Shown: piece after piece, positions 27,746-64,000 of the stretch
Position numbering within the stretch: the stretch's first letter is position 1
Layout of the letters: every line of letters starts with the position of its first letter
Source of the DNA: an uncultured Planctomycetia bacterium
GTDB taxonomy: Bacteria > Omnitrophota > Gorgyraeia > 2-02-FULL-51-18
Assembly (NCBI GenBank): GCA_964642015.1
Contig: CAZXLF010000007.1
Span: 75,964 to 139,963, forward strand
Length of the DNA stretch: 64,000 nucleotides
Reading direction: 5' to 3'
Translations under genes and position numbers: made by a program
Notes under the pieces: model-generated
Told to the model about the DNA's origin: nothing
The model's database searches: none
What the model saw: only the letters and a program-made list of their open reading frames with translations

Positions 27746-27748
27746 TTT

Positions 27749-30319
<2,571 letters not shown>

Positions 30320-30625
30320 TTAGAACTCCCCTATTCTAAAATGAATTTCAGAGATTCTATCCTTTCCGAGCTTTCTTTTCAATCCTTTTAAGATATCCCG
30401 TTTGCGCATCGAAAGCTCCTGCATCCAAGCTGAGTTATCGACTCGTATACTCAAAACCTTGTTCCGGATAGCTGTTGGTCTTGAATGTTTGAAACCATTC
30501 TCACCAACAAGTTCTTTCCAGAACGATTCCATAGATTCGCTGGATGGATTGGTTGATCCCTCCAATCTTGCGAAAACATTTTGAATAACCTCGCTTATCG
30601 GAGAGACCTTTGAACCTTTTGCCAT
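30320..30625 (-). CDS. DUF721-domain protein in the conserved dnaN-gyrB slot
   Basis: 101 aa; the position and size are typical of DUF721 proteins. Confidence 0.6.
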   Translation of the reverse strand: MAKGSKVSPISEVIQNVFARLEGSTNPSSESMESFWKELVGENGFKHSRPTAIRNKVLSIRVDNSAWMQELSMRKRDILKGLKRKLGKDRISEIHFRIGEF

Positions 30626-30649
30626 TGCGGATATGGGTGGTATCGCGGA

Positions 30650-31759
30650 TTAACTCACCTGCATCGGCAGCACAATGTATGTATAATCTTCGCCACTTTT
30701 AATGACGGCCGGTTTTTCAGGATCTATAAATCCAAACTGAACATTCTCATCACCAACATTCTTCAATACATCAATAAGAAAAGTTGGGTTGAAGCCGATC
30801 GCTAGCTCGCCTCCTTTATAATCCACTTCAAGCTCTTCACGCACCTCGCCAAGATCAGGTGTATTCTTAGTGATGATCATTCGGTCTTTAATGATATTTA
30901 TCTTCACTGATTGAGAATCTTGGTTTGTTAATATACTCGCGCGTCTTGTCGCTTGTAAAAAATCCTGAGTATTTATCTTTAATTCCTCTTTCGTTTTTTT
31001 AGGGATAACTTGCTCATAATTCGGGTATTCCCCCTCTATTAAACGGGAAATAATAGTCACCTGACCAAGATTGATTTGAAGTTGGTTCTCTTTAAAATAA
31101 AAAACCACATCACCTTCTTCAAGAAGATTTCGATTTAACTCTTGGATTGTTTTCATAGGAACTATCACATCCTTTTTAACATTACCAATCTCCTGAATCT
31201 CTTTTTCTATAATCGCCAGTCTCCTACCATCAGTTGCTACAAGTTTTAACGCCTTATCTTTAAAACTAAATAGTATCCCATTTAATACATAACGGGATTC
31301 ATCATGGCTCATCGCAAAAGAAGTAAGTTGAATCATACTCTTTAAAAGTCTTTGAGGTATCTTCACTAAATCTACGCTTTTCACGGTATGCGGGAAATTG
31401 GGAAGTTGAGGGAAATCCTCCTTTAAAAGTCCCATTAAACGAAAATAACTTTTATCTGCCTCAATTTGAATTGATTGACCTTTTTTTACAGAGACTGTTA
31501 TCTCGGTTTGATTTGAAAGTTCTTTAATAATTTCACTAAACTTTCTAGCAGGTACTGTTATTGATCCCTCTTCCAAAACATCCCCTTTAACAACTGCAAC
31601 AACCCCAATTTCAAGATCAGTAGCAGTTAACCTAATCTCTTGTTTTTGAGCTTCTACTAATATATGAGATAAAATTGGAAGTGTACTTTTTGTACTAACA
31701 GCGTTTTGTACCACTTGAATACCCTTTAACAATTCATCCTTTAATATTTTTATTTTCAT
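30650..31759 (-). CDS. dnaN: DNA polymerase III beta sliding clamp
   Basis: 369 aa; three-domain clamp pattern; located between dnaA and gyrB. Confidence 0.9.
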   Translation of the reverse strand: MKIKILKDELLKGIQVVQNAVSTKSTLPILSHILVEAQKQEIRLTATDLEIGVVAVVKGDVLEEGSITVPARKFSEIIKELSNQTEITVSVKKGQSIQIEADKSYFRLMGLLKEDFPQLPNFPHTVKSVDLVKIPQRLLKSMIQLTSFAMSHDESRYVLNGILFSFKDKALKLVATDGRRLAIIEKEIQEIGNVKKDVIVPMKTIQELNRNLLEEGDVVFYFKENQLQINLGQVTIISRLIEGEYPNYEQVIPKKTKEELKINTQDFLQATRRASILTNQDSQSVKINIIKDRMIITKNTPDLGEVREELEVDYKGGELAIGFNPTFLIDVLKNVGDENVQFGFIDPEKPAVIKSGEDYTYIVLPMQVS

Positions 31760-31914
31760 AGTTATTCACTCCATTGTTATTATTTATCTTTTATAAATCA
31801 AAAACAGTCATAGTAGTAATAGCTTGAATAATGGTATTAGTCCCTAACTTTAATATTTAAAACAACTTACAAATTAACAACTTGTGTATAACTATTCACT
31901 TATCCACAGTTTGT

Positions 31915-33300
31915 TTACTTACGAATTTCAAGTGATAACTTATCCACAAGCGATTTTGTTTTTTGATCCTTCTTAATATCTTTCTTTATTTTCTGATAAG
32001 CGTGTAAAACTGTTGTATGATCACGTCCACCAAATTGTTCACCAATCTCTGGTAATGATAAACCTGTCATTTCTCTAGATAAAAACATCGCAACATGTCT
32101 GGGATAAACCACATTTTGTGAGCGGCGCTTGGCAGTCATATCAGAGGGTCGTATTTCGAAATATTCTGCCACTTTCCTTTGAATAACGTCAACCGTGATC
32201 TTTTTTTGATTTTCAACAATAAGGTCTTTTAAAACGTCATAAGCGACATCCTGATCAACTTCTTTACCAACTAACTTAGAGTAAGCCACCACACGTATTA
32301 AAGCTCCTTCAAGTTCCCTTATATTTGATTTTATACGGTCCGCGATGAATGAGGTCACGCCATCGGGAATGTGGAGATTTTCTCTCTCAGCTTTTTTTCT
32401 CAAAATAGCCGTTCTGGTTTCAAAATCGGGCGGTTGAATATCAGTTACCAATCCCCATTCAAATCTAGATACCAACCTCTCTTCCAAATTTGAGATATCT
32501 TTCGGTGGTTTGTCACTCGAAACAACTATTTGTTTATGGTAGTCATATAACGTGTTAAACGTATGAAAAAATTCCTCCATAGTGGCTTCTTTTCCCGCTA
32601 TAAAATGAATATCATCAATAAGCAAACAATCAACGTTTCTATATTTTTCCCTAAATTTAATAGTGGTACCGGTCTTAATGGCATTAATTAATTGATTGGT
32701 AAATTTTTCGCTGGTGATATAAAGAACTTTCATGCCAGGATTTCTTGTAAGTATCTCTTGTCCAATAGCTTGCATTAAATGCGTTTTTCCAAGTCCAACA
32801 GGCCCATAAATAAAAAGAGGGTTGTAAGCTTTAGCGGGTGTTTCAGCTACGGCCATTGAAGCTGCATGGGCAAATCTGTTCGAAGGTCCAACAACAAAAC
32901 TTTCAAACGTATATTTCGAATTTAAAGCCGGCTCCGAAAGATTTCCATTCATTATTGTCGGAGATACGGATGAATAATAGCTGTTTTGAGCTATTTTTGT
33001 TTGATTGGTTATTGAGTTTACAGGTTCCGGATCTGATTTTGAAACTTCGAAAGATAATTTAAAAGATGGGTCTCCAGTTATATCTTTTGCGGCGAGCGTG
33101 ATCATGCTTCCATAATGGTCCACTATCCAATTCTTAAAGAAATCATCAGGTACTCCAAGGTTTAGTTCATTCTCTGTGAATTTAAGAGGCTGGATTGGTT
33201 TTAGCCATCGATCGTAGACATGAGGACTCAGCTCATTTTTAAGAGATTCTATTACTTGTGTCCACAAGTTTGATGCGTTTAAATCTTTGAAGTTATCCAC
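31915..33300 (-). CDS. dnaA: Chromosomal replication initiator DnaA
   Basis: AAA+ Walker A GPVGLGKTHL, sensor motifs, C-terminal DNA-binding domain. DnaA boxes flank the gene. Confidence 0.95.
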   Translation of the reverse strand: MDNFKDLNASNLWTQVIESLKNELSPHVYDRWLKPIQPLKFTENELNLGVPDDFFKNWIVDHYGSMITLAAKDITGDPSFKLSFEVSKSDPEPVNSITNQTKIAQNSYYSSVSPTIMNGNLSEPALNSKYTFESFVVGPSNRFAHAASMAVAETPAKAYNPLFIYGPVGLGKTHLMQAIGQEILTRNPGMKVLYITSEKFTNQLINAIKTGTTIKFREKYRNVDCLLIDDIHFIAGKEATMEEFFHTFNTLYDYHKQIVVSSDKPPKDISNLEERLVSRFEWGLVTDIQPPDFETRTAILRKKAERENLHIPDGVTSFIADRIKSNIRELEGALIRVVAYSKLVGKEVDQDVAYDVLKDLIVENQKKITVDVIQRKVAEYFEIRPSDMTAKRRSQNVVYPRHVAMFLSREMTGLSLPEIGEQFGGRDHTTVLHAYQKIKKDIKKDQKTKSLVDKLSLEIRK

Positions 33301-33699
33301 AGAATTTTGTTCTACCTTGTTAATATTGTTTTAATATTTTACTTTAAGTTTATTATTTTGAACTACTTATGAAACAAAAATTTAATAACAAGTAAACAAA
33401 TATAAATTTTGTACTTATAAACAAGTTATCCACAGGATATGATTTTTAAAAAACAATCAAGTTAGCTTCAAGATTTGTTGAGAAATTATAACAACTCAAA
33501 ATCTGTATTGCAACAATAATCTTTAGCTCTATCAAATTGGGTAAAAATTTGATCATCGAATTGTAAATTTCTTAGCGCAATCTCAATGCGGTTATCAAAC
33601 AAATTCAGCCAATCCGTATAATCCACGTTGACACTCTTTATGGGCGTTGCTATAATTTCTTACTTTTAAAAAGCTAAATCAAGCCCAATTAAGGATCCC
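33301..33699. other. oriC candidate: AT-rich unwinding region plus DnaA boxes between divergent dnaA and rpmH
   Basis: TTATCCACA at 33293-33301 and 33426-33434 (also 31900-31908, 31940-31948, and TGTGTCCACA near 33257). 33301-33420 is over 80% AT. Gene strand bias switches here. Confidence 0.75.
33627..33655 (+). promoter_or_regulatory. Sigma70-type promoter for rpmH (TTGACA-17-TATAAT)
   Basis: ttgacactctttatgggcgttgctataat, about 45 nt upstream of the rpmH ATG. Confidence 0.6.
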
Positions 33700-33837
33700 A
33701 TGAAAAAAACGCTTACGAATAAATCAAACATAAAAAGAAAGCGCACTCACGGATTTAGAAAAAGAATGCGTTCTAAAGACGGACGAAAAGTGATCAAAAG
33801 GCGGCGTCAAAAGGGCCGGCACAGTCTTACGGTCTGA
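33700..33837 (+). CDS. rpmH: 50S ribosomal protein L34 (missed by the 60-aa ORF cutoff)
   Basis: Manual translation [45 protein letters not shown]. Confidence 0.9.
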
Positions 33838-33848
33838 GTTATTTTAAC

Positions 33849-34133
33849 ATGCCTGAAACCGAAGGCTGGCTTTCTTTAAAGTGCCAGGAAAAGCCCAGGT
33901 CAATGGTAAGTGTTGAGAAGGCCTCACTTCTTATTTCTATTCCTAAGAAAGTGGTTTTCCTTGCGACCGAGCGCAATAAGATTAAACGACTGATACGGGA
34001 AGCGTTTAGACATAGGATGAGCTTGAATTCCAAGAAGGCTTATTTATTTCGAGTCGTTCGGTATCCGGGCAACGTTGGTCTTCGGGAAATAAACGACGCA
34101 ATGGATACGGCGATTGCTCACTCAAAACAATGA
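33849..34133 (+). CDS. rnpA: RNase P protein component
   Basis: [14 protein letters not shown] motif; position after rpmH. Confidence 0.75.
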
Positions 34134-34368
34134 GTTTATGCCAATGATAAATAAAGTGGCGATTTTTTTCATCATGATCGTTTCCAGGATCTTCAGATTT
34201 AATAATCTGAGAGCGTGTCGGTTCTACCCAAGCTGTTCAGAATATTCGATAGAGGCGTTTAAGAAATTTAATGTTTTGAAAGCAGCTTATTTAATGACGA
34301 GAAGGATCTTGCATTGCCATCCGTTCTGTGAAGGCGGATTTGATCCGGTTCCTGATATAAGAGTATGA
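34114..34368 (+). CDS. yidD: Membrane protein insertion efficiency factor YidD
   Basis: [10 protein letters not shown]...[13 protein letters not shown] conserved Cys pattern. Confidence 0.85.
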
Positions 34369-34382
34369 ATCAATAGGGATTT

Positions 34383-36029
34383 ATGGAAAGAAAAACAATA
34401 ATCTTTTTGGCAATATCATTCGTGATCTTAGGTCTTTATCCGGCCGTGTTGAAGCACTTTTATCCTGACTATTACAAGACTTCGAGGACACTTAAGAAAA
34501 AAGATATTGGTTCTTTATCTTTATCAATTAGTGCTTCGTCACCAGCGATTCCAAATACTTCAGGTTCCGATGCCCAGAGCTTTTCACTTTCGAATGATGT
34601 GAATTTCCAAAGCCAAAACCTGAAACTTTTATTCAACAAAAAAGGCGGATCTATCCACGAAGTCGCCTTTCCCAAATTCATTGATTCTGATACTAATAAA
34701 CCACTGGTTTTTCTATCCTTAAAAGAACCTTTTGGCAATGCGACGCTCGTCACATTAAAAGATTCTCCTGACAACTCTTCAATACCTCAGATCGTTGACT
34801 ATACCGTTGAGAAAAACGGCATGAATAAATCATTGCGGGCATTAGCGGCTCTTGACGGTATCAAGATACAGAAAGATTATCAATTCAAAAAAGATCAATA
34901 TTCTGGAAGTTTGAACCTTAAATTTGAAAATACCACTGACTCTCCTATCGAGTTCCGCTATCAATTATTTGCCGGTTCAAGTATTGCACCACGCCATGGG
35001 ATCGATACTCAATATATAGAAGGAAACTTCTTTTCCAGATCAGGGGAAAAAGTATTTCTGAAGCATATCAAGGAATCCAAGCTTGGGAAGAGTGTGGAAA
35101 GTACGGACTCAGTCGAATGGGTCGCGATCAAGGACAGACACTTTTCCATTATCTTGAAGCCAAGATCCACATCATCATCTTTTACCGGATTAGTTCAAGG
35201 ACTTGGCAATCGTCATTTCAGCGTGTCCTTGGTTTCTGAAAAGATCGCGCTTTCTCCCCATAGTGCGGTTCAACATGATTTCCTTATTTATATGGGCCCG
35301 AATGAACTGGATGAACTTACACCGATAGGGTTGGATGCGCTTGTCAATTTTGGAAAGCTTGATGGAATAGGAAGATTTCTTGTCGGAGCGCTTGAGATGT
35401 TGCATAAGGTTTTCAAAAATTACGGTCTGGCCATCATTATTCTTACGGCTCTCATCAATGTCCTTTTGTTCCCTTTGACATCCACGAGTTACATGTCAAT
35501 GAAGCGCATGCAGCTGATCCAACCGCAGATGAATAAATTGCGCGAACAGCACAAAAAAAATCCTGAAAAATTGAACAAGGAAATGATGGAACTTTATAAG
35601 AAACATAAAGTAAATCCATTCGGAGGATGTTTGCCGATGATATTGCAGACACCCGTGTTCATCGCGCTTTATGTGGCGCTTTCCAAGTCGGTCATTTTGA
35701 TCAATTCTAAACTCTTATGGATCAAAGATCTGTCATCCCCTGATCGTTTACCGCTTCCTTTTTCTTTGCCTTTTTTTGGGAATGAGATCCATGTCTTACC
35801 TCTGGTCATGTGTGTGGCCATGTTTTTACAGCAAAAATTGACCCAAGTTAAAATAGAAGGTCAAGATCCCGCGATGGAATCCCAACAGAAAATGATGACC
35901 GTAATGATGCCGATTATGTTCGGATTTATTTTTTATGCAATGCCTTCAGCTCTCGTGCTTTATTGGCTTACGAATACGATCATCATGAGCTCTTATCAGC
36001 TTTATCTTAAACGAGTCACTCTTACTTAG
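34383..36029 (+). CDS. yidC: Membrane protein insertase YidC
   Basis: 548 aa; N-terminal TM, large periplasmic domain, C-terminal 5-TM core. Confidence 0.9.
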   Translation: MERKTIIFLAISFVILGLYPAVLKHFYPDYYKTSRTLKKKDIGSLSLSISASSPAIPNTSGSDAQSFSLSNDVNFQSQNLKLLFNKKGGSIHEVAFPKFIDSDTNKPLVFLSLKEPFGNATLVTLKDSPDNSSIPQIVDYTVEKNGMNKSLRALAALDGIKIQKDYQFKKDQYSGSLNLKFENTTDSPIEFRYQLFAGSSIAPRHGIDTQYIEGNFFSRSGEKVFLKHIKESKLGKSVESTDSVEWVAIKDRHFSIILKPRSTSSSFTGLVQGLGNRHFSVSLVSEKIALSPHSAVQHDFLIYMGPNELDELTPIGLDALVNFGKLDGIGRFLVGALEMLHKVFKNYGLAIIILTALINVLLFPLTSTSYMSMKRMQLIQPQMNKLREQHKKNPEKLNKEMMELYKKHKVNPFGGCLPMILQTPVFIALYVALSKSVILINSKLLWIKDLSSPDRLPLPFSLPFFGNEIHVLPLVMCVAMFLQQKLTQVKIEGQDPAMESQQKMMTVMMPIMFGFIFYAMPSALVLYWLTNTIIMSSYQLYLKRVTLT

Positions 36030-36053
36030 AATTTTTTACAATTTCAAATCAAC

Positions 36054-37871
36054 ATGATCATTACTGACGAAAAATACGATGTGATCGTTATCGGCGCCGG
36101 CCATGCCGGCTGTGAAGCTGCGTTGGTGTGCGCCCGTCTTGGCGCAAAGACGTTGATGCTTACGATGAATCTGGATGCGGTGGCGCAGATGTCCTGCAAT
36201 CCGGCAATCGGCGGTATTGCAAAAGGTCATATTGTTCGGGAGATAGATGCGCTTGGCGGAGAAATGGCAAAATTGACCGACCGTACAGGCATTCAATTCC
36301 GCATGTTGAATAAAAGTAAAGGACCAGCTGTTTGGGCTCCCCGCGCACAATGCGACAAAAAAATATATTCGATGACGATGAAGCATGTTATTGAAAGTCA
36401 GGAAAATCTGGACCTTAAACAAGGTGAAGCAAAAGAGATCCTTGTTAATGGAAACGCAGTCGAAGGTGTCATAACGACTATAGATACTGTTTATTACTCT
36501 AAAGCAGTTATTGTTACTACAGGAACTTTCCTAAATGGATTAATTCATATTGGTGATATAACTTTTGGAGGCGGCCGCGCCGGTGATAAAGCATCTCATG
36601 GAATATCTTCATCGTTAGCCAAGCTTGGTTTTGAAATTAAGCGATTAAAAACTGGTACCCCTCCCCGATTAAATGCAAAATCCATAGATTTTTCCAAACT
36701 TGAAGCACAAAATGGCGATGATGACCCAACACCATTTAGTTATCAAACAAAAAAGATCACGCAAGAGCAACTGCCTTGCTATATTACTTACACAAGCGAC
36801 AAAACACATAAGATAATTAAAGAAAATATTCATCGTTCTCCCCTTTATTCCGGAAAAATTGAAAGTCGAGGCCCAAGATATTGTCCTTCGATTGAAGATA
36901 AAGTTTATCGTTTTGCAGACAAAGACCGACATCAATTATTTTTGGAACCTGAAGGTCGTTATACAGAAGAGACTTACATAAATGGATTATCAACAAGTTT
37001 TCCACAGGATGTTCAAATAAAACTTGTAAGAAGTATTCAAGGTCTTGAAAATGCAGAACTTATGAGATTTGGATATGCAATTGAATATGATTTTTGTCCA
37101 CCAACACAATTAGAGCCAACATTACAAACAAAAAAAATAGAAAATTTATATTTAGCAGGCCAGATAAATGGAACATCAGGATATGAAGAAGCCGCATGTC
37201 AAGGATTGATGGCCGGCATAAACGCAGTATTGAAGCTACAATTGAAAGGACCTTTGATTCTTGATAGATCCGAAGGTTATATAGGCGTTTTAATAGACGA
37301 TCTTGTTACTAATGGAACAGAAGAGCCTTATCGTATGTTTACGTCTAGGGCAGAACATCGATTAATATTGAGACAGGACAATGCAGATAAGAGGCTATTA
37401 AGGTATGGTCATGATTTGGGTTTGATTTCAAAGAAACATTTCAAGGAATTTTCAGAAAAACAGAGCAAAATCGATTATTGGATTGATAAAATTAAGCATA
37501 CAAGATTTCAGCAAGTACCTATGGATAAATATCTTAGGAGAAATGAAGTAAACTTAAAAGATGTTTTAGGAATCATGCATGAACAGATAGCAGATGTTGA
37601 GGTAGAGAATCAAGTTGAAATAGAAATTAAATACTCTGGTTATGTGCAAAGAGAAATAGGAATAGTAAATCGTCTTAAAAAATATGAAGAGAAAAAGATA
37701 CCTTCAAATTTGTTATTCAAAGAAATAAAAGGGCTAAGCAGGGAAGCCCAAGAAAAATTGGATAAGATTAAACCAGTTTCTTTAGGTCAAGCAGCAAGGA
37801 TTTCTGGAATAACTCCATGCGATATTTCAGTTCTAGCAGTTTTTATTGAAAAACTCCGTAAATCTTCGTAA
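36054..37871 (+). CDS. mnmG: tRNA uridine 5-carboxymethylaminomethyl modification enzyme MnmG (GidA)
   Basis: 605 aa; FAD-binding YDVIVIGAGHAGCEAA. Confidence 0.95.
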   Translation: MIITDEKYDVIVIGAGHAGCEAALVCARLGAKTLMLTMNLDAVAQMSCNPAIGGIAKGHIVREIDALGGEMAKLTDRTGIQFRMLNKSKGPAVWAPRAQCDKKIYSMTMKHVIESQENLDLKQGEAKEILVNGNAVEGVITTIDTVYYSKAVIVTTGTFLNGLIHIGDITFGGGRAGDKASHGISSSLAKLGFEIKRLKTGTPPRLNAKSIDFSKLEAQNGDDDPTPFSYQTKKITQEQLPCYITYTSDKTHKIIKENIHRSPLYSGKIESRGPRYCPSIEDKVYRFADKDRHQLFLEPEGRYTEETYINGLSTSFPQDVQIKLVRSIQGLENAELMRFGYAIEYDFCPPTQLEPTLQTKKIENLYLAGQINGTSGYEEAACQGLMAGINAVLKLQLKGPLILDRSEGYIGVLIDDLVTNGTEEPYRMFTSRAEHRLILRQDNADKRLLRYGHDLGLISKKHFKEFSEKQSKIDYWIDKIKHTRFQQVPMDKYLRRNEVNLKDVLGIMHEQIADVEVENQVEIEIKYSGYVQREIGIVNRLKKYEEKKIPSNLLFKEIKGLSREAQEKLDKIKPVSLGQAARISGITPCDISVLAVFIEKLRKSS

Positions 37872-37986
37872 TTTTCTAAACTTTATTTGATCACATTTGG
37901 TTTCCACGTGGAAACACCTTAAAATTTCAATTTATCTAAAGAAAACGTATTGACTTTAAATTCACTTTGTTTTATTATTGCCAAAA

Positions 37987-38763
37987 ATGGCAAAAATAAT
38001 AGCTATATGCAATCAAAAAGGGGGAGTAGGAAAAACAAGCACAGCTGTTTCTCTCTCATCCTGTCTCGCCATAGAAGGAAAAAAAAGTCTCCTTATTGAT
38101 CTGGATCCTCAAGGAAATGCCACAAGTGGTTTAGGTATAGACAAGCACAAAGTAGAAAAATCGATTTATTTTGCTTTGCTTGGTGAGTCTAAATTACCTG
38201 ATCTTATTGTTGAAACTTGCGTTCAAAATCTATTTATAGTTCCTGCCAATGAGCATTTATCAGGCTCTGAAGTAGAATTGGTAGGAGAACTAGGAAGAGA
38301 AGGAAGACTTAAAAAAGCTTTATTGCAACTTGATCCATCATTTGAGTTTGTAATAATTGACTGTCCACCATCTTTTGGACTTTTGACAATAAATGCGTTA
38401 ACGGGATCAAATTCTGTATTGATACCTATTCAATGTGAATATTACGCTTTAGAAGGATTAAGCCAGCTTGTCAAAACAATAAATCTCATTAAGGATAATT
38501 TAAATTCTAATCTCGAAATCGAAGGCATCCTAATGACAATGGCAGATTTTCGAACCAATCTAACTCAAGAGGTAATCGACGAAGTCAAAAAACACTTTGG
38601 CAGTAAAGTTTATAATACAGTAATCCCTAGAAATATCAGAATGAGTGAAGCTCCCGGATTTGGCAAGCCAATTTTCTTATATGATAAAGATTCTGAAGGC
38701 GCAAAGAAATATAAAGAGCTGACAAAGGAATTTTTATTATTTAATATAAGTAATTCAAATTAA
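37987..38763 (+). CDS. parA: Chromosome partitioning ATPase ParA/Soj (ATG at 37987; the track's TTG 37978 is an alternative)
   Basis: Deviant Walker A KGGVGKTST. Confidence 0.9.
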   Translation: MAKIIAICNQKGGVGKTSTAVSLSSCLAIEGKKSLLIDLDPQGNATSGLGIDKHKVEKSIYFALLGESKLPDLIVETCVQNLFIVPANEHLSGSEVELVGELGREGRLKKALLQLDPSFEFVIIDCPPSFGLLTINALTGSNSVLIPIQCEYYALEGLSQLVKTINLIKDNLNSNLEIEGILMTMADFRTNLTQEVIDEVKKHFGSKVYNTVIPRNIRMSEAPGFGKPIFLYDKDSEGAKKYKELTKEFLLFNISNSN

Positions 38764-44084: not shown

Positions 44085-44750
44085 ATGGCGGTATTGGTTT
44101 TAATGAAAATTTTTCTTAGCTATTCAGGAGAGAATAAACTTTTAGCCGGTCGCATAAAGAGAGCGCTAGAAGAATTTGATGACATAGAGTGTTTCGTTGC
44201 TCATGACGATATTAAGTCTGGAAGTAAATGGGAAGATAAAATATTGGAAAACTTGAAACAAGCGGATTATTTCATGCCTCTTCAAACACAAGAACTATCC
44301 GATTCTTTTTGGTGTCAACAAGAAGCAGGGATTGCAATTGCACTAGAAACTCAAATAGTTCCTCTAATTCCAGATAAAGGAGGGATAGATCCTGTTGGCT
44401 TTTATTCTAGATATCAAGGAGCAAGAATTAATATAGATGATCTTCGTCCTTCAATTAGGAGATTACTTATTCAGCAAGAAATAATTGAAGCTGATAATGT
44501 TGCGGAAGAATTAGAGACTCATTTGCTTATATTTGAAAGATCGAACACATGGGCAGAAGCTTCAGAAAATTTTGACACTTTGATTAAATACGAAGATAAA
44601 TTTTCAAAAGGTCAAATTAAGCGAATAGCGCAAGCGGTGGTCGACAATAATCAAATTCGTGACTCGTACTCCGCACAATTTAAAATAAAAAGGTTTATTA
44701 AAAAACATGCTCAGTTGATTCCCAGAGATCAACTAGAGCAGATTTTATAA
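44085..44750 (+). CDS. TIR-domain protein (N-terminal TIR of about 140 aa plus an about 80-aa C-terminal region of unknown function); alternative start 44103
   Basis: KIFLSYSGENK...A..I...L......CFVAHDDIKSGSKWEDKILENLKQADYFMPLQTQELSDSFWCQQEAG matches the bacterial TIR pattern (FxSYS, D-x-G-x-W, WC-x-x-E). Confidence 0.65.
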   Translation: MAVLVLMKIFLSYSGENKLLAGRIKRALEEFDDIECFVAHDDIKSGSKWEDKILENLKQADYFMPLQTQELSDSFWCQQEAGIAIALETQIVPLIPDKGGIDPVGFYSRYQGARINIDDLRPSIRRLLIQQEIIEADNVAEELETHLLIFERSNTWAEASENFDTLIKYEDKFSKGQIKRIAQAVVDNNQIRDSYSAQFKIKRFIKKHAQLIPRDQLEQIL

Positions 44751-53684: not shown

Positions 53685-55265
53685 ATGTTTAGGGAGGAAA
53701 ACGGTTTGGCTGGCGGCGGATCTGGTGTTGGCTTTTATATGGCTGATAAACGCATCTATTTAGTAGAGTTGCGTAAGGAATTTGGAGGGATCCAAGTGGT
53801 TCGTTATGCAGAGGCAGAAGTAGAGCTGACAGAAAACAATCTGCCTAAGGAGTTTTCCTCTCAAACGGTGAGACAAGCATTTGAGAAAGCCGGTATAAAA
53901 TCAGAGAATGTTATCGTGGCTCTTGCAGAAAAAGAGTCCATGACTCGGTATTTCGACATGCCTTTATTGCCAAAAAAGGAATGGAAGAATTCGGTCCGTT
54001 TCGAAGCGCAGAAATACCTGCCTTTTGATGTCAGAGATCTTTATTCTGATTTTAAAGTAATACCCGACAAAACAAAAAAGCGGATGAGCGTGATGTTCCT
54101 GGCGGCGAAAAGACATGCCGCGGACCTGATACTGGAATTCATCCACCAGGCAGGACTAAGCGTTAGTTCTATGGAATCTGTATCAGTTTCGTTCGTAAGA
54201 CTGCTATATTCCCAGCAGCCTTGGAAGATCACAGATGTGTTTGGCGTTTTAGATATAGGTGAGGAAGGCAATTTGAACATAGCGATCATCAAGGGCAATA
54301 AACTCCTCATGACCCGTAATTGTTTCTTTACTATCTCTCAGGGATCGGCGCCATCCGCGAATTTTGAATCCTTTACGGGAGAAGTGCGCCTATCTTTGAA
54401 CTATTTTATGAAGAATTTCAAAGATGAAAAAATACAATATTTAATTTTTTGTGGCGATACGGAAAGGAATTTTCCTCAGTGGGATGAATCGTTAGGAAAT
54501 GAACTTGAAATTTCGGTCAAGAAATTTTATCCGACAAAAATATTTGGAAAATCTTTACCTTATTCTTCCGGGCTTGCTGCGGCGATCGGTGCTGCTTTGA
54601 AACCTTTAGCTTCTGATAATACACCGCATTTTAATCTTATTCCTCCGGAAAAAGCGAAAAGATTCAGCGCTTTACCGATGTCCCAGGAGCAGGAAAACAG
54701 TCTTCTTAAAAAAACGCTGATCACCGGAGGTATTGTTGTTCTGATCGTTCTGATCGCACTCAAGATATCGTTGACGATCGTTGCGTTATCCAGGACGCAG
54801 ACCATCAATGAAATAAAAAAACCGTTCATTAACGAAGCAGGGGGCCTGGCTTACTTAACCAAGGACCAGCTTGAAGAGAAAAAGACCGAGTTTGGCAATA
54901 AATTGCAATTTTTTGATTCTTTAGTGGGCCGGCGTGTATTCTGGACCTCTAAAATGAATGAGATAGCCAAATTATTACCGGATAATATGAGCCTGCTTAC
55001 GTTAGATTATACGGATAATGAAGATAGAGACGGACAGAGCACTCAATCTTTGACTATAGAAGGCACGGTATTTTCAGATCCCGGAGCCGAACTTTCCGCA
55101 GTAAATAGCTTTGTCATGGCGCTGGGTAAAAGCGAAGAATTCATGAAGGGCTTCGAGGAGATCAAAATATCTTCTATTCAAAAGAATTTCATGGAAAATT
55201 TAACGACGACTAAATTTACCATAGTATGTTTACCTCATGCTATTAAACAAAATAACTCGCCATGA
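53685..55265 (+). CDS. pilM: Type IV pilus assembly PilM fused to a PilN-like TM/periplasmic domain
   Basis: Actin-like PilM N-half (about 310 aa). Then TM LITGGIVVLIVLIALKISLTIVAL and a periplasmic domain of about 170 aa. Confidence 0.7.
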   Translation: MFREENGLAGGGSGVGFYMADKRIYLVELRKEFGGIQVVRYAEAEVELTENNLPKEFSSQTVRQAFEKAGIKSENVIVALAEKESMTRYFDMPLLPKKEWKNSVRFEAQKYLPFDVRDLYSDFKVIPDKTKKRMSVMFLAAKRHAADLILEFIHQAGLSVSSMESVSVSFVRLLYSQQPWKITDVFGVLDIGEEGNLNIAIIKGNKLLMTRNCFFTISQGSAPSANFESFTGEVRLSLNYFMKNFKDEKIQYLIFCGDTERNFPQWDESLGNELEISVKKFYPTKIFGKSLPYSSGLAAAIGAALKPLASDNTPHFNLIPPEKAKRFSALPMSQEQENSLLKKTLITGGIVVLIVLIALKISLTIVALSRTQTINEIKKPFINEAGGLAYLTKDQLEEKKTEFGNKLQFFDSLVGRRVFWTSKMNEIAKLLPDNMSLLTLDYTDNEDRDGQSTQSLTIEGTVFSDPGAELSAVNSFVMALGKSEEFMKGFEEIKISSIQKNFMENLTTTKFTIVCLPHAIKQNNSP

Positions 55266-55804
55266 TTACTAACATACCTGAATCGGTCCAAAAAAAATTA
55301 TTATTCCTGATTGTATCGCTCTTGTTGGCTGGATTCATGCTGGCAAATAATATCATTGTCAGTCCTTTTGTCAGCAAATTAAAGTCCCTATATTCTGAAC
55401 AGACCGGCATTAACTATAAACGGCAGCTTGTTCAAGAGATAGGCGGCCTTGATAAAAAATTAGGCTCGTATAAATCCTCATTTCCTGAGAATAAGCAGGT
55501 TTCTTGGTTCATTGAAGAACTCAATAAAATGGCCGAGCAATCATCCGTCTCTCTGACTTCTATAGCGCCTGTGAACGATGAGAATAGAGGAGATTATCAA
55601 AAGAGCATCATGAAGCTTGAAACACAATGCACCTATCACGAATTGGGAGATTTTGTAAGTCGGATCGAGAGCTCGTCTCGCTTCATCAAGATTTCAGGCT
55701 TTCGCGCGGAATTGATCACTGAAGGCAAAAAAGTTCCGGGTAAAAATATTAGGGCTATTCTTTCGATAAGTTTTTTTTATCCGGCTAAGGTGATGGCAAA
55801 ATGA
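55262..55804 (+). CDS. pilO: PilO-like pilus assembly protein
   Basis: N-terminal TM, coiled region; position between pilM/N and pilP/Q. Confidence 0.55.
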   Translation: MITNIPESVQKKLLFLIVSLLLAGFMLANNIIVSPFVSKLKSLYSEQTGINYKRQLVQEIGGLDKKLGSYKSSFPENKQVSWFIEELNKMAEQSSVSLTSIAPVNDENRGDYQKSIMKLETQCTYHELGDFVSRIESSSRFIKISGFRAELITEGKKVPGKNIRAILSISFFYPAKVMAK

Positions 55805-56151
55805 AAAAGATAGCCTGTCTATTTTTAATACTTGTGATCGTGATGCTATCTAAAGATTCACATGCTATTGAATATACTGGCCAATCTTTAAGAGACCCGT
55901 TCAGTAGTACCAAAATGGGCGGATCCAGCATAAAAGATGAGATCGCAACGCTCTCATTTACTTTGGAAGGTTTTGTGTGGAATACGAAACGTCCTCAGGC
56001 GATCATCAATGGGCAGGTTGTGGAAGTTGGAAGCAAAATTGAAAATGCGGAAATTCTTGACATTCAAAAAGGAGGTGTCAAAATGCGTTATAAAGGGAAA
56101 GAATTTTTTTTAAGGCCTAAAAAAACAGAAGCTGAGAAGTCAAAGTCATGA
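55801..56151 (+). CDS. PilP-like small secreted protein
   Basis: Signal peptide; C-terminal beta-rich INGQVVEVGSKIENAEILDIQ; immediately precedes the secretin. Confidence 0.5.
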   Translation: MKKIACLFLILVIVMLSKDSHAIEYTGQSLRDPFSSTKMGGSSIKDEIATLSFTLEGFVWNTKRPQAIINGQVVEVGSKIENAEILDIQKGGVKMRYKGKEFFLRPKKTEAEKSKS

Positions 56152-57958: not shown

Positions 57959-59671
57959 ATGACTAAAAAGCATTTACGGCTTGGAGAATTGCTCTTAAAA
58001 GAAGGTTTGATCACTCAAGAGCAGCTCTTAAAAGTCCTTGAACTTCAAAAAAAAGGTTCTCCGGACGCAGTCGGCACTCTGCTTTTTAAACTTGGTGCTA
58101 TTACGGAAAAAGAACTTATCGAGACTCTGAGCAAGCAGCTTGGCATTCCTTTTATGACAAAAGAGAACGGTCTTTTGAAACCTGTCGCCGATCAGGAATT
58201 GAATAAACTTATTCCGGAAGAATTTGCTAGGAAACATTGCATCATTCCGATCTCCAAGCATTTTAAATCTCTGACGATCGCGTTTTCAGATCCGACGGAT
58301 GTCGTCTTGATCGATAATCTTCGCAAGATCACCGGAATGGATATACAAAGAGTAGTCGCTTTAAAAAATGACATTGAGTTATCGATAGACGAATTTTACG
58401 GCGAAGGCGGCATGTTAAAAAGTGTTGTCGAAGCTTCTTATACCGGTAGAAAACATGATGCACGTTTGGAATCCGAGGATCAGTTATCTCTGGATGATAT
58501 TGTTGCCAATGCCGAAAAGGCGCCGGTGGTCAGATTGGCAGATCTTTTGATCCGTCAGGCGATCAAACAGCACGCCAGCGATATCCATATCGAGCCTTCG
58601 CCAGACAAAGTGACAATTCGTTTTCGTATCGATGGAGTGCTTCAAGAAATTCCATCACCGGATAAGTCCATGGCCCTTCCTCTTGTATCGCGACTTAAGC
58701 TATTAGCCAAGATGGACATAGCGGAGAAACGTCTACCTCAAGATGGCAGTTTTCGTGCTAGTATCGAAAACCGGCTCATTGATTTCCGTGTTTCCACGGT
58801 ACCCACGATCAACGGAGAAAAAATGGTTTTGAGGATCCTTGATCGCTCATCAGTATCTTTGGATCTTGTTAAACTTGGATTTAATGGAAATGATCTTGCG
58901 GTTTTTAGAAAAGCGATCTCTAGGCCGTATGGAATGATCCTGTTGACTGGACCGACCGGAAGCGGAAAAACCACGACACTTTATGCAGCCCTCAATGAGA
59001 TCAAGGGCACGGATAAGAACATTACGACCATCGAAGATCCGGTCGAATATCAGATCGCCGGTATTAATCAAGTACAAGTGAAGCCATCTATTGGTTTGAC
59101 ATTTGCCAGTGGCTTGAGGTCATTCTTGAGGCAAGATCCAGACATCATGCTTGTCGGAGAGATCCGCGATCTTGATACGGCTCAAATATGTGTACGAGCG
59201 GCACTTACCGGTCATCTGGTTTTCAGCACCCTTCATACAAACGACGCTCCATCCGCAATAAGCCGGCTTGTCGATATTGGTATAGAACCATTTTTTGTGA
59301 CGTCGTCTCTTTTGATGGTAGTAGCCCAAAGACTGATCCGAAAATTGTGTCCAAAATGTAAAGAATCTTACAAACCTTTGCATAATCAATTACCCACCGG
59401 ATTTAAAATGACCTCTGATGTTATTTATCGTGCTAAAGGTTGTGAATACTGTTCCGGGACAGGCTACATGGGACGCTTAGCCGTAGCGGAAATCATGAGC
59501 ATGACTGAAGAAATTGAACAATTAATTCAAAAAAGAGCCACTACTTCAGATATCAAAAATTCCGCTAGAAAAGCCGGCATGGTAACGCTTGAAGAAAGCG
59601 GATATAACAAGGTTTTAACAGGTGAGACCTCACTCGAAGAAGTTATTCGGGTGACGATGGCGAATATTTAA
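57959..59671 (+). CDS. pilB: Type IV pilus assembly ATPase PilB (GspE family)
   Basis: N-terminal GspE_N domain, Walker A GPTGSGKTTT, tetracysteine CPKC...CEYC. Confidence 0.9.
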   Translation: MTKKHLRLGELLLKEGLITQEQLLKVLELQKKGSPDAVGTLLFKLGAITEKELIETLSKQLGIPFMTKENGLLKPVADQELNKLIPEEFARKHCIIPISKHFKSLTIAFSDPTDVVLIDNLRKITGMDIQRVVALKNDIELSIDEFYGEGGMLKSVVEASYTGRKHDARLESEDQLSLDDIVANAEKAPVVRLADLLIRQAIKQHASDIHIEPSPDKVTIRFRIDGVLQEIPSPDKSMALPLVSRLKLLAKMDIAEKRLPQDGSFRASIENRLIDFRVSTVPTINGEKMVLRILDRSSVSLDLVKLGFNGNDLAVFRKAISRPYGMILLTGPTGSGKTTTLYAALNEIKGTDKNITTIEDPVEYQIAGINQVQVKPSIGLTFASGLRSFLRQDPDIMLVGEIRDLDTAQICVRAALTGHLVFSTLHTNDAPSAISRLVDIGIEPFFVTSSLLMVVAQRLIRKLCPKCKESYKPLHNQLPTGFKMTSDVIYRAKGCEYCSGTGYMGRLAVAEIMSMTEEIEQLIQKRATTSDIKNSARKAGMVTLEESGYNKVLTGETSLEEVIRVTMANI

Positions 59672-60905: not shown

Positions 60906-60992
60906 CTTTAAAAAGAACATTTGAAAATTGTTATTGAATGTGGTATGATTAAGGCCATCATAAAGATCAACATGATCTTTAAGGAGTAGGTA

Positions 60993-61436
60993 GTGAAAAC
61001 AAAAGGGGGGAGTATCATGAGAAAAGAAAACGGTTTAAAAAGGCTCAACAGCAAAGGCTTTACGCTGATTGAAGTCTTGATCGTAGTGATCATCATTGCG
61101 GTATTAGCCGGCCTTGCTGTTCCTATGTTCCGTGGCACTGTTGAAAAGTCACGGAAAACAGAAGCTGAGGGTGTTCTTTCTGCGACTCGGCATTCCGAAC
61201 TGCGTTACTTTGCAGCAAATAACACTTACACCACTACTGTGGCTTCTTTGGATTACAATCCAACAGCCGCGGATACGTCGGGACAAACAGTACACTTTAC
61301 CTATACCATCCCAACAGGGGGTGCTACTACGCTGACAGTCACAGCAACGCGTAACACCGTTGATGGTGGAGATGGAACAAGTACAGTGTCTATTAATCAG
61401 GCGGGTGTTGTTACAGGCACAGGCGTTTTCGCATAA
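60993..61436 (+). CDS. Type IV major pilin, copy 1 (GTG 60993 or ATG 61018; class III signal ...KG|FTLIEV)
   Basis: Prepilin N-terminal methylation motif G-FTLIEVLIVVIIIAVLAGLAVP. Strong SDs before both candidate starts. Confidence 0.85.
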   Translation: MKTKGGSIMRKENGLKRLNSKGFTLIEVLIVVIIIAVLAGLAVPMFRGTVEKSRKTEAEGVLSATRHSELRYFAANNTYTTTVASLDYNPTAADTSGQTVHFTYTIPTGGATTLTVTATRNTVDGGDGTSTVSINQAGVVTGTGVFA

Positions 61437-61954
61437 TACTTTTGCGAGCCTATTCTTATTTTGTTTACGCTCTTGATATCTATTGAGAGGGCTGCTGAAT
61501 GATGAGAATGGGATGGGACGGAGGATTATATTATGATGATGAGAGGCAAACGAGCGACGAAACTTAATAAGAACGGTTTTACTCTTATTGAAGTCTTGAT
61601 CGTAGTGATCATCATTGCGGTATTAGCCGGCCTTGCTGTTCCTATGTTCCGTGGCACTGTTGAAAAGTCACGGAAAACAGAAGCTGAGGGTGTTCTTTCT
61701 GCGACTCGGCATTCCGAACTGCGTTACTTTGCAGCAAATAACACTTACACCACTACTGTGGCTTCTTTGGATTACAATCCAACAGCCGCGGATACGTCGG
61801 GACAAACAGTACACTTTACCTATACCATCCCAACAGGGGGTGCTACTACGCTGACAGTCACAGCAACGCGTAACACCGTTGATGGTGGAGATGGAACAAG
61901 TACAGTGTCTATTAATCAGGCGGGTGTTGTTACAGGCACAGGCGTTTTCGCATA
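61068..61954 (+). repeat. Tandem duplication: 368 bp perfectly identical (61068..61435 = 61587..61954), offset 519 bp, covering the mature pilin coding sequence
   Basis: Direct sequence comparison. Leaders and upstream regions differ. Confidence 0.9.
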
Positions 61955-61955
61955 G
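61533..61955 (+). CDS. Type IV major pilin, copy 2 (identical mature protein, different leader MMMRGKRATKLNKNG)
   Basis: GGAGGA SD; identical from FTLIEV to the C-terminus. Confidence 0.85.
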   Translation: MMMRGKRATKLNKNGFTLIEVLIVVIIIAVLAGLAVPMFRGTVEKSRKTEAEGVLSATRHSELRYFAANNTYTTTVASLDYNPTAADTSGQTVHFTYTIPTGGATTLTVTATRNTVDGGDGTSTVSINQAGVVTGTGVFA

Positions 61956-61990
61956 TGATTATTTACGCTTAGTTGCGTAACTAAAAAAGA

Positions 61991-62040
61991 ATAGGCAAAA
62001 ACGAACTCATTTTTGGGACGTTTTTGCCTATCTTTATCTA
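61991..62040 (+). terminator. Rho-independent terminator after the pilin genes
   Basis: ATAGGCAAAAACG-aactcatttttggga-CGTTTTTGCCTAT 13-bp stem, then a T-rich tail (ctttatc). Confidence 0.6.
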
Positions 62041-62048
62041 GGGGTCTG

Positions 62049-62450
62049 ATGATGAGAAAAAAATCAGGATTCACACTAACAGAAGTTTTAATGGTAATTA
62101 CTATTTTGGCGATCCTCGCCGGCTTAGCAGCACCCAATTATTTTCTAACGGTCGAAAAATCCAGATCGAATGAAGCCATAGGGAATTTGAACATTATCCG
62201 GATGGGCGAGAGGATCTATAAGCTGAACAATAGCAGATATTGGCCAAATCCGGATGCGACTGATAACACTCTAAGTGATATTAATACGAATCTGAATGTC
62301 AGCCTTGATACGCCTAAGTACTATGCACTTTCAATCACTTCGACTGGCACAGGCACGGCCTTTACTGCGACGGCGTCGCGCGGGAACGCCGGAGCCAAAA
62401 CATTTACCATCGATCAAACAGGGACTATTACTGAATCAGGGACATATTGA
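62049..62450 (+). CDS. Minor pilin/pseudopilin (leader MMRKKSG|FTLTEV)
   Basis: Prepilin motif GFTLTEVLMVITILAILAGLAAP. Confidence 0.75.
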   Translation: MMRKKSGFTLTEVLMVITILAILAGLAAPNYFLTVEKSRSNEAIGNLNIIRMGERIYKLNNSRYWPNPDATDNTLSDINTNLNVSLDTPKYYALSITSTGTGTAFTATASRGNAGAKTFTIDQTGTITESGTY

Positions 62451-62453
62451 GGA

Positions 62454-63515
62454 ATGAAATATTTTTATTCTCCCCCTCCTTTTTTTATATTACTATTTTC
62501 TATATTATTTACGGTCCCATGCTATTCTGAAACCCTAGAACGTTCAACCGAATATTCCTCTCCTTACGGTTCTTATAAAGAACTGACTGCTTTAAATTCG
62601 ATGACAGTAGGAATCGCTCCCACAGCTCCAGCTACACCTGCGAATGCCGCTACAGGCGTTGTGACCGTGAACGGTAGTCTTCAGATCAGTAATGGTCCGA
62701 CTATCATTGAAGAAAAATTAGGAGTGGATGGGGACACTTTGAAAGTACTTCCATACAATTATTGGGGTGGTTTACATTGGGTGAATATAGGGCAACCCAG
62801 TCCCGAAACGGCTACTATTGATAAATTGTCCGATTTGAATGTATACGGAGATATTTGGTCAAACCGTTATTTTCATGTAGCGACGCGTTTTACGGAAAAG
62901 AGATTTTTTTTGGGCACAACGGATCCTGCCACGACTCCGGTATTGGGTGAGATGGGCGCACAGGATGATTCCAATGTTTGGCAACCTGCCTTTTTTAAAG
63001 CAAATCATAAAATAGTTCTTAACAGTGGGGACACCGGGAGGTCTAGCGGAAAAGTTATTATCGGTGCTACTCAGGCTGAAGCGGTTACTGCAGTGGGAGG
63101 CGCCGCAAATTATGCTCTTTACAAGTTAATTGTGAACGGTTCCAGTGTAGCCCAAAACTTTATTTCAAGCAGTTCCCGCGAATATAAAACGGATATTCAG
63201 CCACTTACTGAAACTCAATACAGAGGGACCTTGGATGACTTATCCAAGACTGAAGTTTTTCGTTTCCGATATAAATCTGAAAGTCCGTCTGAGCGAAGAA
63301 TTCATACCGGCACCATAGCCGAGAATAGCCCTGAAGAAATACTTAGCTCAGGCAAAAAAGGGATTAACACGTCGAGCGCCATAGGTTTTTTGATAGCTAC
63401 TGTAAAGGAACTCGCGCTTCAAAATGAACAGCTTGAAAAAGAGGTGGTCAGGCTTGAGAAAGAATTAGGTAAGATAAAAAAAGATGAAAAAACCGATGAG
63501 CATCTGGCAAAATAA
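62454..63515 (+). CDS. Secreted fibre-like protein with a C-terminal Peptidase_S74 intramolecular-chaperone (phage tail-fibre) domain
   Basis: Signal peptide. The C-terminus YKTDIQPL...VFRFRYKSE...RIHTGTIAE...AIGFLIATVKELALQNEQLEKEVVRLEKEL matches the S74 consensus (K.DI.PL..F.YK....H.G.IA....L....AVKEL..N..L). Confidence 0.7.
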   Translation: MKYFYSPPPFFILLFSILFTVPCYSETLERSTEYSSPYGSYKELTALNSMTVGIAPTAPATPANAATGVVTVNGSLQISNGPTIIEEKLGVDGDTLKVLPYNYWGGLHWVNIGQPSPETATIDKLSDLNVYGDIWSNRYFHVATRFTEKRFFLGTTDPATTPVLGEMGAQDDSNVWQPAFFKANHKIVLNSGDTGRSSGKVIIGATQAEAVTAVGGAANYALYKLIVNGSSVAQNFISSSSREYKTDIQPLTETQYRGTLDDLSKTEVFRFRYKSESPSERRIHTGTIAENSPEEILSSGKKGINTSSAIGFLIATVKELALQNEQLEKEVVRLEKELGKIKKDEKTDEHLAK

Positions 63516-64000
63516 AAAGAAGATCTTATACGCGGTATTTTTCTTATTATCCATCACTCCTCCTGTTTTTTCCGTGCAAACCGAGAAAGTTACTACTTAT
63601 TATTCACAACCTAATGGTGATTATAAGGATGTTACCGTTATCAATAGTTTGACCGTTGGTGGAAATATGCAAGCGTCTGTTGGTACGGGAAATTTTTCCA
63701 TTCTAAACAATGATATCGATGGATGGGTGACAAGTTTTCCGGCTCCCAGCGGTGGCGGTCTTACTGTCGTGAACTCTTTTAATATTCAAAATTCTGCCAA
63801 CACCAGTTTGTTCTATGTGGATAATGTCAATCATCGAGTTGGAATAGGGACTGCTACTCCACTTACGACGTTAGATGTTCGAGGAGAAGTGAATACCCAA
63901 ATTCTCCATGGCTACAGTACGATAACTGATCCATGGAGTGGCGCTTCAGTTGAAACGCTCGATCAAAATTTTGAGACCGGAGGCATTTCAGGCAATATTT
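63496..64000 (+). CDS. Paralogous secreted fibre-like protein, N-terminal part (runs off the window)
   Basis: Signal peptide. TYYSQPNGDYKDVTVINSLTVGGN parallels EYSSPYGSYKELTALNSMTVGIA of the previous gene. HRVGIGTATPLTTLDVRGEV is a tail-fibre-like repeat. Confidence 0.55.
   Translation, partial: MSIWQNKKKILYAVFFLLSITPPVFSVQTEKVTTYYSQPNGDYKDVTVINSLTVGGNMQASVGTGNFSILNNDIDGWVTSFPAPSGGGLTVVNSFNIQNSANTSLFYVDNVNHRVGIGTATPLTTLDVRGEVNTQILHGYSTITDPWSGASVETLDQNFETGGISGNI

Follow-up and report, generated by a model that had tools for sequence, protein, structure and literature searches.

The Peptidase_S74 (S74) domain, as found in K1F endosialidase, T5 pb1, MyRF and Bd3182, nucleates the trimerisation of the beta-structure upstream of it and then self-cleaves. 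Minor pilins build the priming or tip complex both of type IV pili and of type II secretion systems, and PilY1 is a non-pilin tip adhesin encoded among minor pilin genes. The reuse of the phage S74 module by cells for surface fibres (the MAT fibres) and the bearing of non-pilin tip adhesins by pili (PilY1) are known separately; a conserved genetic union of S74 fibres with a minor-pilin block was not found in the searchable literature, and our literature search returned no link of Peptidase_S74 or S74 with pilins. Here, we analyse a stretch of 64,000 nt from an Omnitrophota genome (contig CAZXLF010000007.1; hereafter the window), whose end falls within a chromosomal pilus operon of the type IVa pilus or type II secretion class and cuts through a set of three paralogous S74 genes, termed A, B and C. 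The mosaic adhesive trimer (MAT) fibres of the predator Bdellovibrio bacteriovorus (S74 subgroup, e.g., Bd3182) are trimeric adhesins that are exported by Sec, processed by S74 and exposed at the surface; what anchors them is an open question in the field, and an interplay with type IV pili is mentioned as a possibility by their authors (PMC10769870). Omnitrophota are an uncultured phylum of very small cells with suspected parasitism or predation and are rich in type IVa pili, which the main survey of the phylum treats at length without S74 or tail-fibre proteins (PMC10066038).

The closest known relatives of the three Omnitrophota proteins are the members of the S74 subgroup of Bdellovibrio MAT fibres. 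Both groups are encoded by cells and carry a Sec signal peptide, right after which comes a conserved N-terminal segment (in MAT fibres a beta-rich domain, ~130 aa long and conserved; PMC10769870). Both continue into a beta-rich body that has VG(I)G/NxxxPxxxL loops, the C-terminus being formed by an S74 chaperone/protease whose motif is Ser-x4-Lys, and in both cases the host (putatively) preys on or parasitises other cells. The two groups differ in size, motif and genomic setting: MAT proteins measure ~1000 aa, whereas the Omnitrophota proteins, at 323-406 aa and with a mature body of ~210-235 aa, reach a third of that size; the motif reads SDxxxK in MAT and SSxxxK here; and MAT genes have not been reported in a pilus operon, whereas exactly three paralogues are nested between pilin genes here. 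A profile search with the S74 family against PDB sequences gave no MAT match, the PDB holding only MAT tips.

Three further systems invite comparison. Phage fibres and tailspikes that end in a C-terminal intramolecular chaperone (K1F endosialidase, T5 pb1, GA-1 gp12, S16 gp37) are matched in the S74 domain by Pfam, PDB sequence and fold; the Omnitrophota proteins, however, are much shorter, possess a signal peptide and an N-terminal motif of their own, and lie in no phage context. The ICA domain of MyRF/MrfA (7dc3) is the best structural and PDB-sequence match and likewise illustrates reuse of the S74 module outside phages, although its biology, the release of a transcription factor from the endoplasmic reticulum membrane, is unrelated. 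PilY1/PilC resembles the Omnitrophota proteins in being non-pilin, Sec-exported and encoded within a minor pilin block (here in at least seven loci), and the role we propose, in pilus priming and as a tip adhesin, is that of PilY1. There is no relation in sequence or domain, the PilY1/Neisseria_PilC beta-propeller being absent from Pfam and NCBIfam scans of the S74 proteins, and PilY1 is one large monomer whereas three small presumed trimers are encoded here.

With the domain identity, catalytic residues, signal peptides, operon membership, synteny and non-phage context of these proteins established, their conservation inside the pilus operon suggests a pilus that bears phage-like fibres. We place a probability of about one half on the reading that the pilus operon has taken up the tail-fibre-like paralogues A, B and C as regular components, whose fibres sit on the pilus tip complex and reach the outside via the secretin.

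The assignment of S74-A begins with its C-terminal domain. The original prediction had recognised an S74 domain in this protein from short strings, all of which are present in the sequence, and the assignment is borne out by Pfam (Peptidase_S74, 28.5 bits, E 1.8e-6, gathering score 22) as well as by PDB and fold matches. The full-length S74-B and S74-C score higher against the same family (PF13884; 35.0 and 33.4 bits, respectively), and all three thus exceed the cut-off of 22. Compared with PDB sequences, the family profile matched 7dc3 (MyRF ICA domain, E 1e-4), 8jov (a tail fibre), 6f45 (tip of the long tail fibre of phage S16) and 3gud (neck appendage of GA-1). The AlphaFold2 (AF2) monomer of S74-A was confident solely over aa 241-350 (pLDDT 65-91), with a long helix at aa 306-352, and the best Foldseek matches of this model were 7dc3 A-C (prob 1.0, TM-score by target 0.50-0.53), followed by 3gw6 (the K1F chaperone). 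Foldseek matches outside the S74 domain of the model were discarded as noise, and an NCBIfam search returned no family for S74-A or S74-B. Regarding the catalytic residues, Ser240 of S74-A aligns with the Ser of SDRRIK in 6f45; S240, S241 and K245 are invariant across the A1 alignment, and the Ser and Lys are invariant in 14 sequences.

At the N-terminus of S74-A, the first 25 residues resemble a Sec signal peptide, and its orthologues show clean AxA|E signal-peptidase sites. Lipoprotein status through Cys23 was considered for S74-A and ruled out: the residues TVPC make no lipobox, and a Cys is missing at this position in the orthologues. After the signal peptide, a motif with the consensus T-x-Y-x-S-P-x-G-x-Y...L.VG is common to A, B and C and to all genomes. 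As G39, Y41 and G53 are the only invariant columns in an 18-sequence A-type alignment (P37 being nearly invariant), this motif is the best conserved segment of the family; PHROG and phage-genome searches matched it to no phage family. A beta-rich body of 200-231 residues follows, which in distant members closes with a canonical GNVGIGTxxPxYKLQVG loop. The precursors amount to ~35-40 kDa and the mature proteins to ~22-25 kDa. The N-terminus of S74-B is 40% identical to that of S74-A over 45 aa (E 5e-8), and aa 117-130 of S74-B read HRVGIGTATPLTTL, within a loop region that matches the N-terminal parts of tail-fibre PHROGs. Loops of the VGIGTxxP class cap beta-helices in MAT fibres and MyRF (PMC10769870). 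The element occurs in one or two copies per protein, and the "Gly/Thr repeats" of the original prediction were therefore an overstatement.

An exact-sequence look-up identified three public contigs that carry S74-A. One of them (locus L001) is 100% identical to window positions 61925-64000 and extends ~9.5 kb further, thereby revealing the order of two pilins, an "H-like" pilin, S74-A, S74-B and S74-C (372 aa, past the window end), three pilin-like genes and then accessory genes. Neighbouring frames are tightly packed: S74-A starts 3 nt past the stop of the H-like pilin gene, and overlaps of 32, 4 and 17 nt join A to B, B to C and C to the next pilin in L001. Where two paralogous secreted proteins had been predicted to follow the pilus cluster, the paralogy holds, but there are three paralogues, they lie inside the cluster, and pilin genes come after them. 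The continuation of the contig, which the original prediction had proposed to inspect, thus contains two more S74 paralogues, three minor-pilin-like genes and pilus accessory genes. Profile searches of the three downstream pilin-like proteins against the PDB returned the N-terminal pilin helix only, or nothing, so that the labels "H/I/J/K-like" rest on size, order and the missing Glu5 and not on homology.

Further evidence is provided by comparison among genomes. The block of one pilin, three S74 genes and minor pilins recurs, unchanged in composition, in at least seven divergent genomes (30-70% identity), the taxonomic spread being known from metagenome contigs: L001 itself, L007/L018 from a groundwater metagenome (63% identity to A), L011/L019 (52%), L004 from an NCBI metagenome-assembled genome, Omnitrophota Bin_62 (48%), L014 (36-42%), L015 (30%) and L023 from a GC-rich organism with the order B-A-C (~30%), with L020, a partial locus at a contig end, as an eighth. 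The H-like pilin directly precedes the S74 genes in eight loci, and the final S74 gene runs 4-17 nt into the pilin gene that follows it in 6/6 checkable loci. The outer flanks vary (UvrD/MFS, AbiEii/MerR, OEP/RND); TPR, large-pilin and PsbP-like genes then follow where contigs reach far enough, except in L007, which has none of them. The PilM-PilN-like fusion at the head of the operon holds the same place in L004, L007, L018 and L019. The pilus link is consequently firmer than could be seen within the window, as the S74 genes stand amid pilin genes, overlap their neighbours and keep their place in at least seven genomes. A, B and C fall into three orthogroups, whose bodies are 43-71% identical between orthologues and 14-27% between paralogues; as the orthologues are far closer, the triplication is old and the copies have been retained together since.

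The pilin upstream of the S74 genes ends in K.FTIDQ.G.IT.SG.Y in 8/8 loci with S74 and in a different tail (KWFQ...TEGGAY) in 2/2 loci without, which is a weak hint at covariation, given a similar ending in the major pilin, the small sample and the fact that the motif was itself among the search patterns. In the two latter loci (L021, 2159-2799; L022, 5062-5894), the second-type pilin is directly followed by the next minor pilin.

Outside these loci, relatives are few. A HMMER scan with the A body (aa 26-239) retrieved only 13 clusters among 1.84 billion representative proteins, the complete members of which share the same build (323-387 aa), and a scan of the GTDB species set with A-type sequences retrieved a single species, Omnitrophota Bin_62. 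Two further observations concern S74 proteins. An unrelated 9-kb metagenome contig (L013, 950-7808) encodes at least four tandem S74-domain proteins of ~525 aa with no pilin genes, and represents a different route to multiplied cellular S74 fibres. The A-type protein P0018 (449 aa) has a chaperone domain that runs into Vsr-like endonuclease sequence and is probably a frameshift or chimeric gene call.

Building on these observations, a working mechanism can be proposed, in which the formation of trimers, their cleavage, the docking to minor pilins, the display at the surface and the adhesive function are inferred. Sec would export each S74 protein to the periplasm, a compartment without ATP-dependent chaperones, where the C-terminal S74 domain, by analogy with characterised members, would drive trimerisation of the beta-rich body and then cleave itself off at the Ser-x4-Lys motif (Ser240/Lys245 in A). 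The short fibres may then dock through the shared N-terminal motif onto the priming/tip complex of minor pilins, a site that we favour because the flanking genes encode minor pilins and because of the PilY1 paradigm. As in phage fibres, which attach by the N-terminus and expose their C-terminal tip once cleaved, the N-terminus would be the attachment end and the new C-terminus the distal tip. The fibres would leave through the secretin on the growing filament, so that the pilus would display phage-like receptor-binding fibres, which would probably serve attachment to host or prey cells.

Several observations weigh against this reading. Sequence scores do not separate the machine from a type II secretion system (assembly ATPase: PilB 627 bits, cut-off 676, vs GspE 598 bits, cut-off 630; platform protein best matched by GspF), and no PilT retraction ATPase was seen in the loci. 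Between L001 and L004, the body of A is more conserved than its chaperone domain (56% vs 28%), and such non-hypervariable bodies are unlike typical receptor-binding tips under diversifying selection. The operons of L021 and L022 have no S74 genes at this position, both contigs ending shortly downstream. In both AF2 monomer runs (14 and 18 sequences), the body stayed below pLDDT 50, and its fibre fold therefore stays putative. Throughout, a Ser stands where the canonical SDxxxK motif has its Asp, and the Ser nucleophile is gone in 2/18 proteins of six complete triples, both B-type (Cys in L011, Glu in L014), so that cleavage may not be universal. These two B-type proteins (L011 1731-2741, CSRQFK; L014 2630-3703, ELNTFK) retain the Lys and the remainder of the domain, and their S74 domains may be non-cleaving chaperones.

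The rival explanation that fares best takes the machine for a type II secretion system and the S74 proteins for its cargo, namely adhesive or glycan-binding trimers that fold in the periplasm and are pushed out via the secretin to remain free or cell-bound without being attached to a pilus. Much in the upstream machinery is compatible with it: the ATPase, platform protein and secretin fit GspE/F/D about as well as PilB/C/Q (for the secretin, GspD 213 bits vs PilQ 202 bits, each under its cut-off), the PilM-N fusion and PilO resemble GspL/GspM (the PilO-like orthologue of L007 additionally matching T2SSM_b), the pilins have no Cys pair and a GspG-like N-terminus, and a PilT-like gene was seen in none of the loci. 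Sec-exported proteins that fold in the periplasm are, moreover, what type II systems export. We nevertheless consider this explanation rather unlikely, since cargo genes usually lie beside the operon and not amid pseudopilin genes with overlapping frames, and since type II substrates have no known linear N-terminal motif in common, whereas the one common to A, B and C is the family's best conserved part. Gene clusters of this type in Omnitrophota have, in addition, been classed as type IVa pili (PMC10066038).

A variant of the pilus-borne fibre, to which we assign only a small likelihood, holds that A, B and C, instead of making three separate homotrimers, combine into one A-B-C heterotrimeric fibre, for which their three co-evolved S74 domains serve as templates, with three different N-termini that fit an asymmetric tip of three minor pilins. 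It would agree with the strict three-fold composition of every complete locus, the similar body lengths (200-231 aa), the tolerance of B for nucleophile loss and the gene overlaps, which suggest translational coupling; to our knowledge, on the other hand, all known S74 assemblies are homotrimers. If true, a heterotrimer would reconcile the three-fold symmetry of a fibre with the one-start helix of the pilus, and the ultra-small Omnitrophota would gain a retractable "tail fibre on a rope" for the capture of host cells.

It is also improbable that the S74 proteins are internal machine parts that are never exposed, such as trimers in the periplasm bound to the secretin, to peptidoglycan or to the alignment complex. 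Conserved, non-variable bodies, the fixed triple in every complete locus and the small mature proteins would suit such a role. The absence of the triple from L021 and L022 at this position identifies it as an accessory module of the minor-pilin block and not as part of the machine core, and characterised S74 proteins are all exposed fibres or spikes or released factors (PMC10769870, PMC3742443).

Regarding the viral connection, the original prediction had seen no other phage genes in the window and had taken the S74 protein for a cellular, co-opted component and not a prophage-borne one, and both statements are upheld; its further proposals, an adhesive role and the pilus as anchor or export route, stay hypotheses. 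Pfam scans of ~50 open reading frames in the window returned cellular genes only (including dnaA, dnaN, gyrBA, yidC, mnmG, parAB, thrS, infC and pheST), and no phage genes, baseplate and tail genes included, were found in the 9.5 kb downstream or in the syntenic loci. A scan of IMG/VR gave no relatives of the S74 family. Among INPHARED phage genomes, only aa 231-323 were matched, at ~36% identity, by chaperone-bearing tail fibres of Bacillus phages, and PHROG matches were restricted to the C-terminal part and the VGIGTxxP loop region of B. The GC content of the three S74 genes (40-42%) lies near the window mean (42.3%), and the S74/pilus locus is ~20 kb from dnaA. A prophage or tailocin tail-fibre remnant that landed by chance beside pilus genes, for which the S74 domain and VGIGTxxP loop typical of phage tail fibres and the phage matches of the C-terminal third might have spoken, is thus refuted, within the reach of these data, by the negative result of the downstream search and retains next to no probability in view of the 64 kb upstream without phage genes, the recurrence of one insertion point, between pilin genes but with changing outer flanks, in at least seven genomes (30-70% identity), the empty viral scan, the native composition and the Sec signal peptides, which are missing from virion fibres.

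The features of the operon are collected in Table 1. The assembly ATPase (57959-59671) reaches 45.7 bits against NF053729, the NCBIfam model of a c-di-GMP-binding motif (cut-off 38), and its MshEN domain together with this match indicates that assembly may be under c-di-GMP control; L007 carries a PilZ-domain gene upstream of its pilus operon. The tandem major pilins have mature-coding parts of ~370 nt that are 100% identical, whereas their leader peptides and upstream regions differ, and the pair points to recent duplication or gene conversion, or possibly to an assembly artefact. The hairpin after the second copy was spotted by eye and then confirmed by folding, a consensus terminator scan between the pilin and S74 genes having found nothing; it is probably an attenuator that parts high pilin expression from the minor-pilin/S74 block. 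Because of this hairpin, the start of the H-like pilin is placed at ATG 62049 and not at TTG 62013, the start in the open reading frame list.

Table 1. Features of the pilus operon and of the S74 genes in the window, followed by the genes downstream of S74-C in locus L001
Feature	Position (nt)	Strand	Evidence or remark
PilM-PilN-like fusion, 526 aa, first operon gene	53685..55265	+	Pfam PilM_2 59 bits; TIGR01175 pilM 76.5 bits, under cut-off
PilO-like protein, 180 aa	55262..55804	+	Pfam PilO 42 bits
Small secreted protein, 116 aa, PilP position	55801..56151	+	Weak T2SSB match alone; kept in syntenic loci
Secretin, 601 aa	56148..57953	+	Pfam Secretin 128 bits, Secretin_N, STN
Assembly ATPase, 570 aa, N-terminal MshEN domain	57959..59671	+	T2SSE 468 bits, MshEN 64 bits
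Platform protein PilC/GspF, 405 aa	59688..60905	+	T2SSF 193 bits; GspF 364 bits, PilC 321 bits
Promoter-like site before major pilin copy 1	60921..60949		10/12 matches plus TG
Major pilin copy 1	60993..61436	+	N_methyl, ComP_DUS above cut-offs
Major pilin copy 2	61533..61955	+	Mature-coding part identical to copy 1
Hairpin with U-rich tail, after second major pilin	61992..62035	+	-24 kcal/mol, z-score -4.9, 0/200 shuffles as stable
Second-type ("H-like") pilin, 132 aa, directly 5' of S74-A	62049..62450	+	N_methyl 33.6 bits
S74-A, secreted fibre-like protein, 353 aa	62454..63515	+	Pfam, PDB profile, AF2/Foldseek
Predicted Sec signal peptide of S74-A, aa 1-25, MKYFYSPPPFFILLFSILFTVPCYS|E	62454..62528	+	Read from sequence
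Conserved N-terminal motif RSTEYSSPYGSYKELTALNSMTVG, aa 30-53 of S74-A, proposed docking segment	62541..62612	+	Alignment
S74 chaperone domain and C-terminal helix, aa 240-353 of S74-A	63171..63512	+	Pfam match aa 240-291
Putative autocleavage motif SSREYK, aa 240-245, nucleophile Ser240, base Lys245	63171..63188	+	Alignments
S74-B, first 172 of 350 aa, gene cut by window end	63484..64000	+	Overlaps S74-A by 32 nt
VGIGTATPLTTL loop motif, aa 119-130 of S74-B	63838..63873	+	Read from sequence
L001 pilin-like protein, 120 aa, 1st after S74-C			Class III (GFTLIE-type) leader
L001 pilin-like protein, 186 aa, 2nd after S74-C			Class III (GFTLIE-type) leader
L001 pilin-like protein, 115 aa, 3rd after S74-C			Pilin-type hydrophobic N-terminus, without Glu5
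L001 coiled-coil protein, 298 aa, 4th after S74-C			N-terminal transmembrane segment
L001 TPR protein, 259 aa, 5th after S74-C			
L001 pilin-fusion protein, 415 aa, 6th after S74-C			Pilin N-terminus plus HExxH motif
L001 PsbP-like protein, ~200 aa, 7th after S74-C			
L001 OEP/RND pump, 8th after S74-C			

The ~415-aa pilin-fusion protein of the downstream region (L001 6787-8034, ~6.9-8.1 kb beyond the window end; orthologues at L004 15948-17180 and L011 6708-7991) begins with a pilin-type N-terminus, which a Gly/Ser-rich linker joins to a C-terminal domain with a conserved HE[AG]TH motif. It has no Pfam match and looks like a modular pilin joined to a metalloprotease-like domain. Elsewhere in the window, the neighbourhood of the replication origin spans 25256-38763, with dnaA, dnaN, gyrB and gyrA on the minus strand and yidC, mnmG and parA/parB on the plus strand, the switch of strands lying near 33.3-34.4 kb. 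Named relatives of this DnaA at 70-76% identity almost all bear the label Candidatus Omnitrophica or Omnitrophota, the exception being one from Eisenbacteria. A TIR-domain protein (44085-44750; TIR_2, 56.5 bits) is encoded just 5' of thrS, amid housekeeping genes.

Owing to their small size (~35-40 kDa as precursors), the S74 proteins are convenient for studying S74-driven folding in a periplasmic setting. If the fibres ride the pilus, this would provide a concrete, testable answer to the question of the fibre anchor in the MAT field, and the S74-bearing pilus would be a candidate host-attachment device for Omnitrophota.

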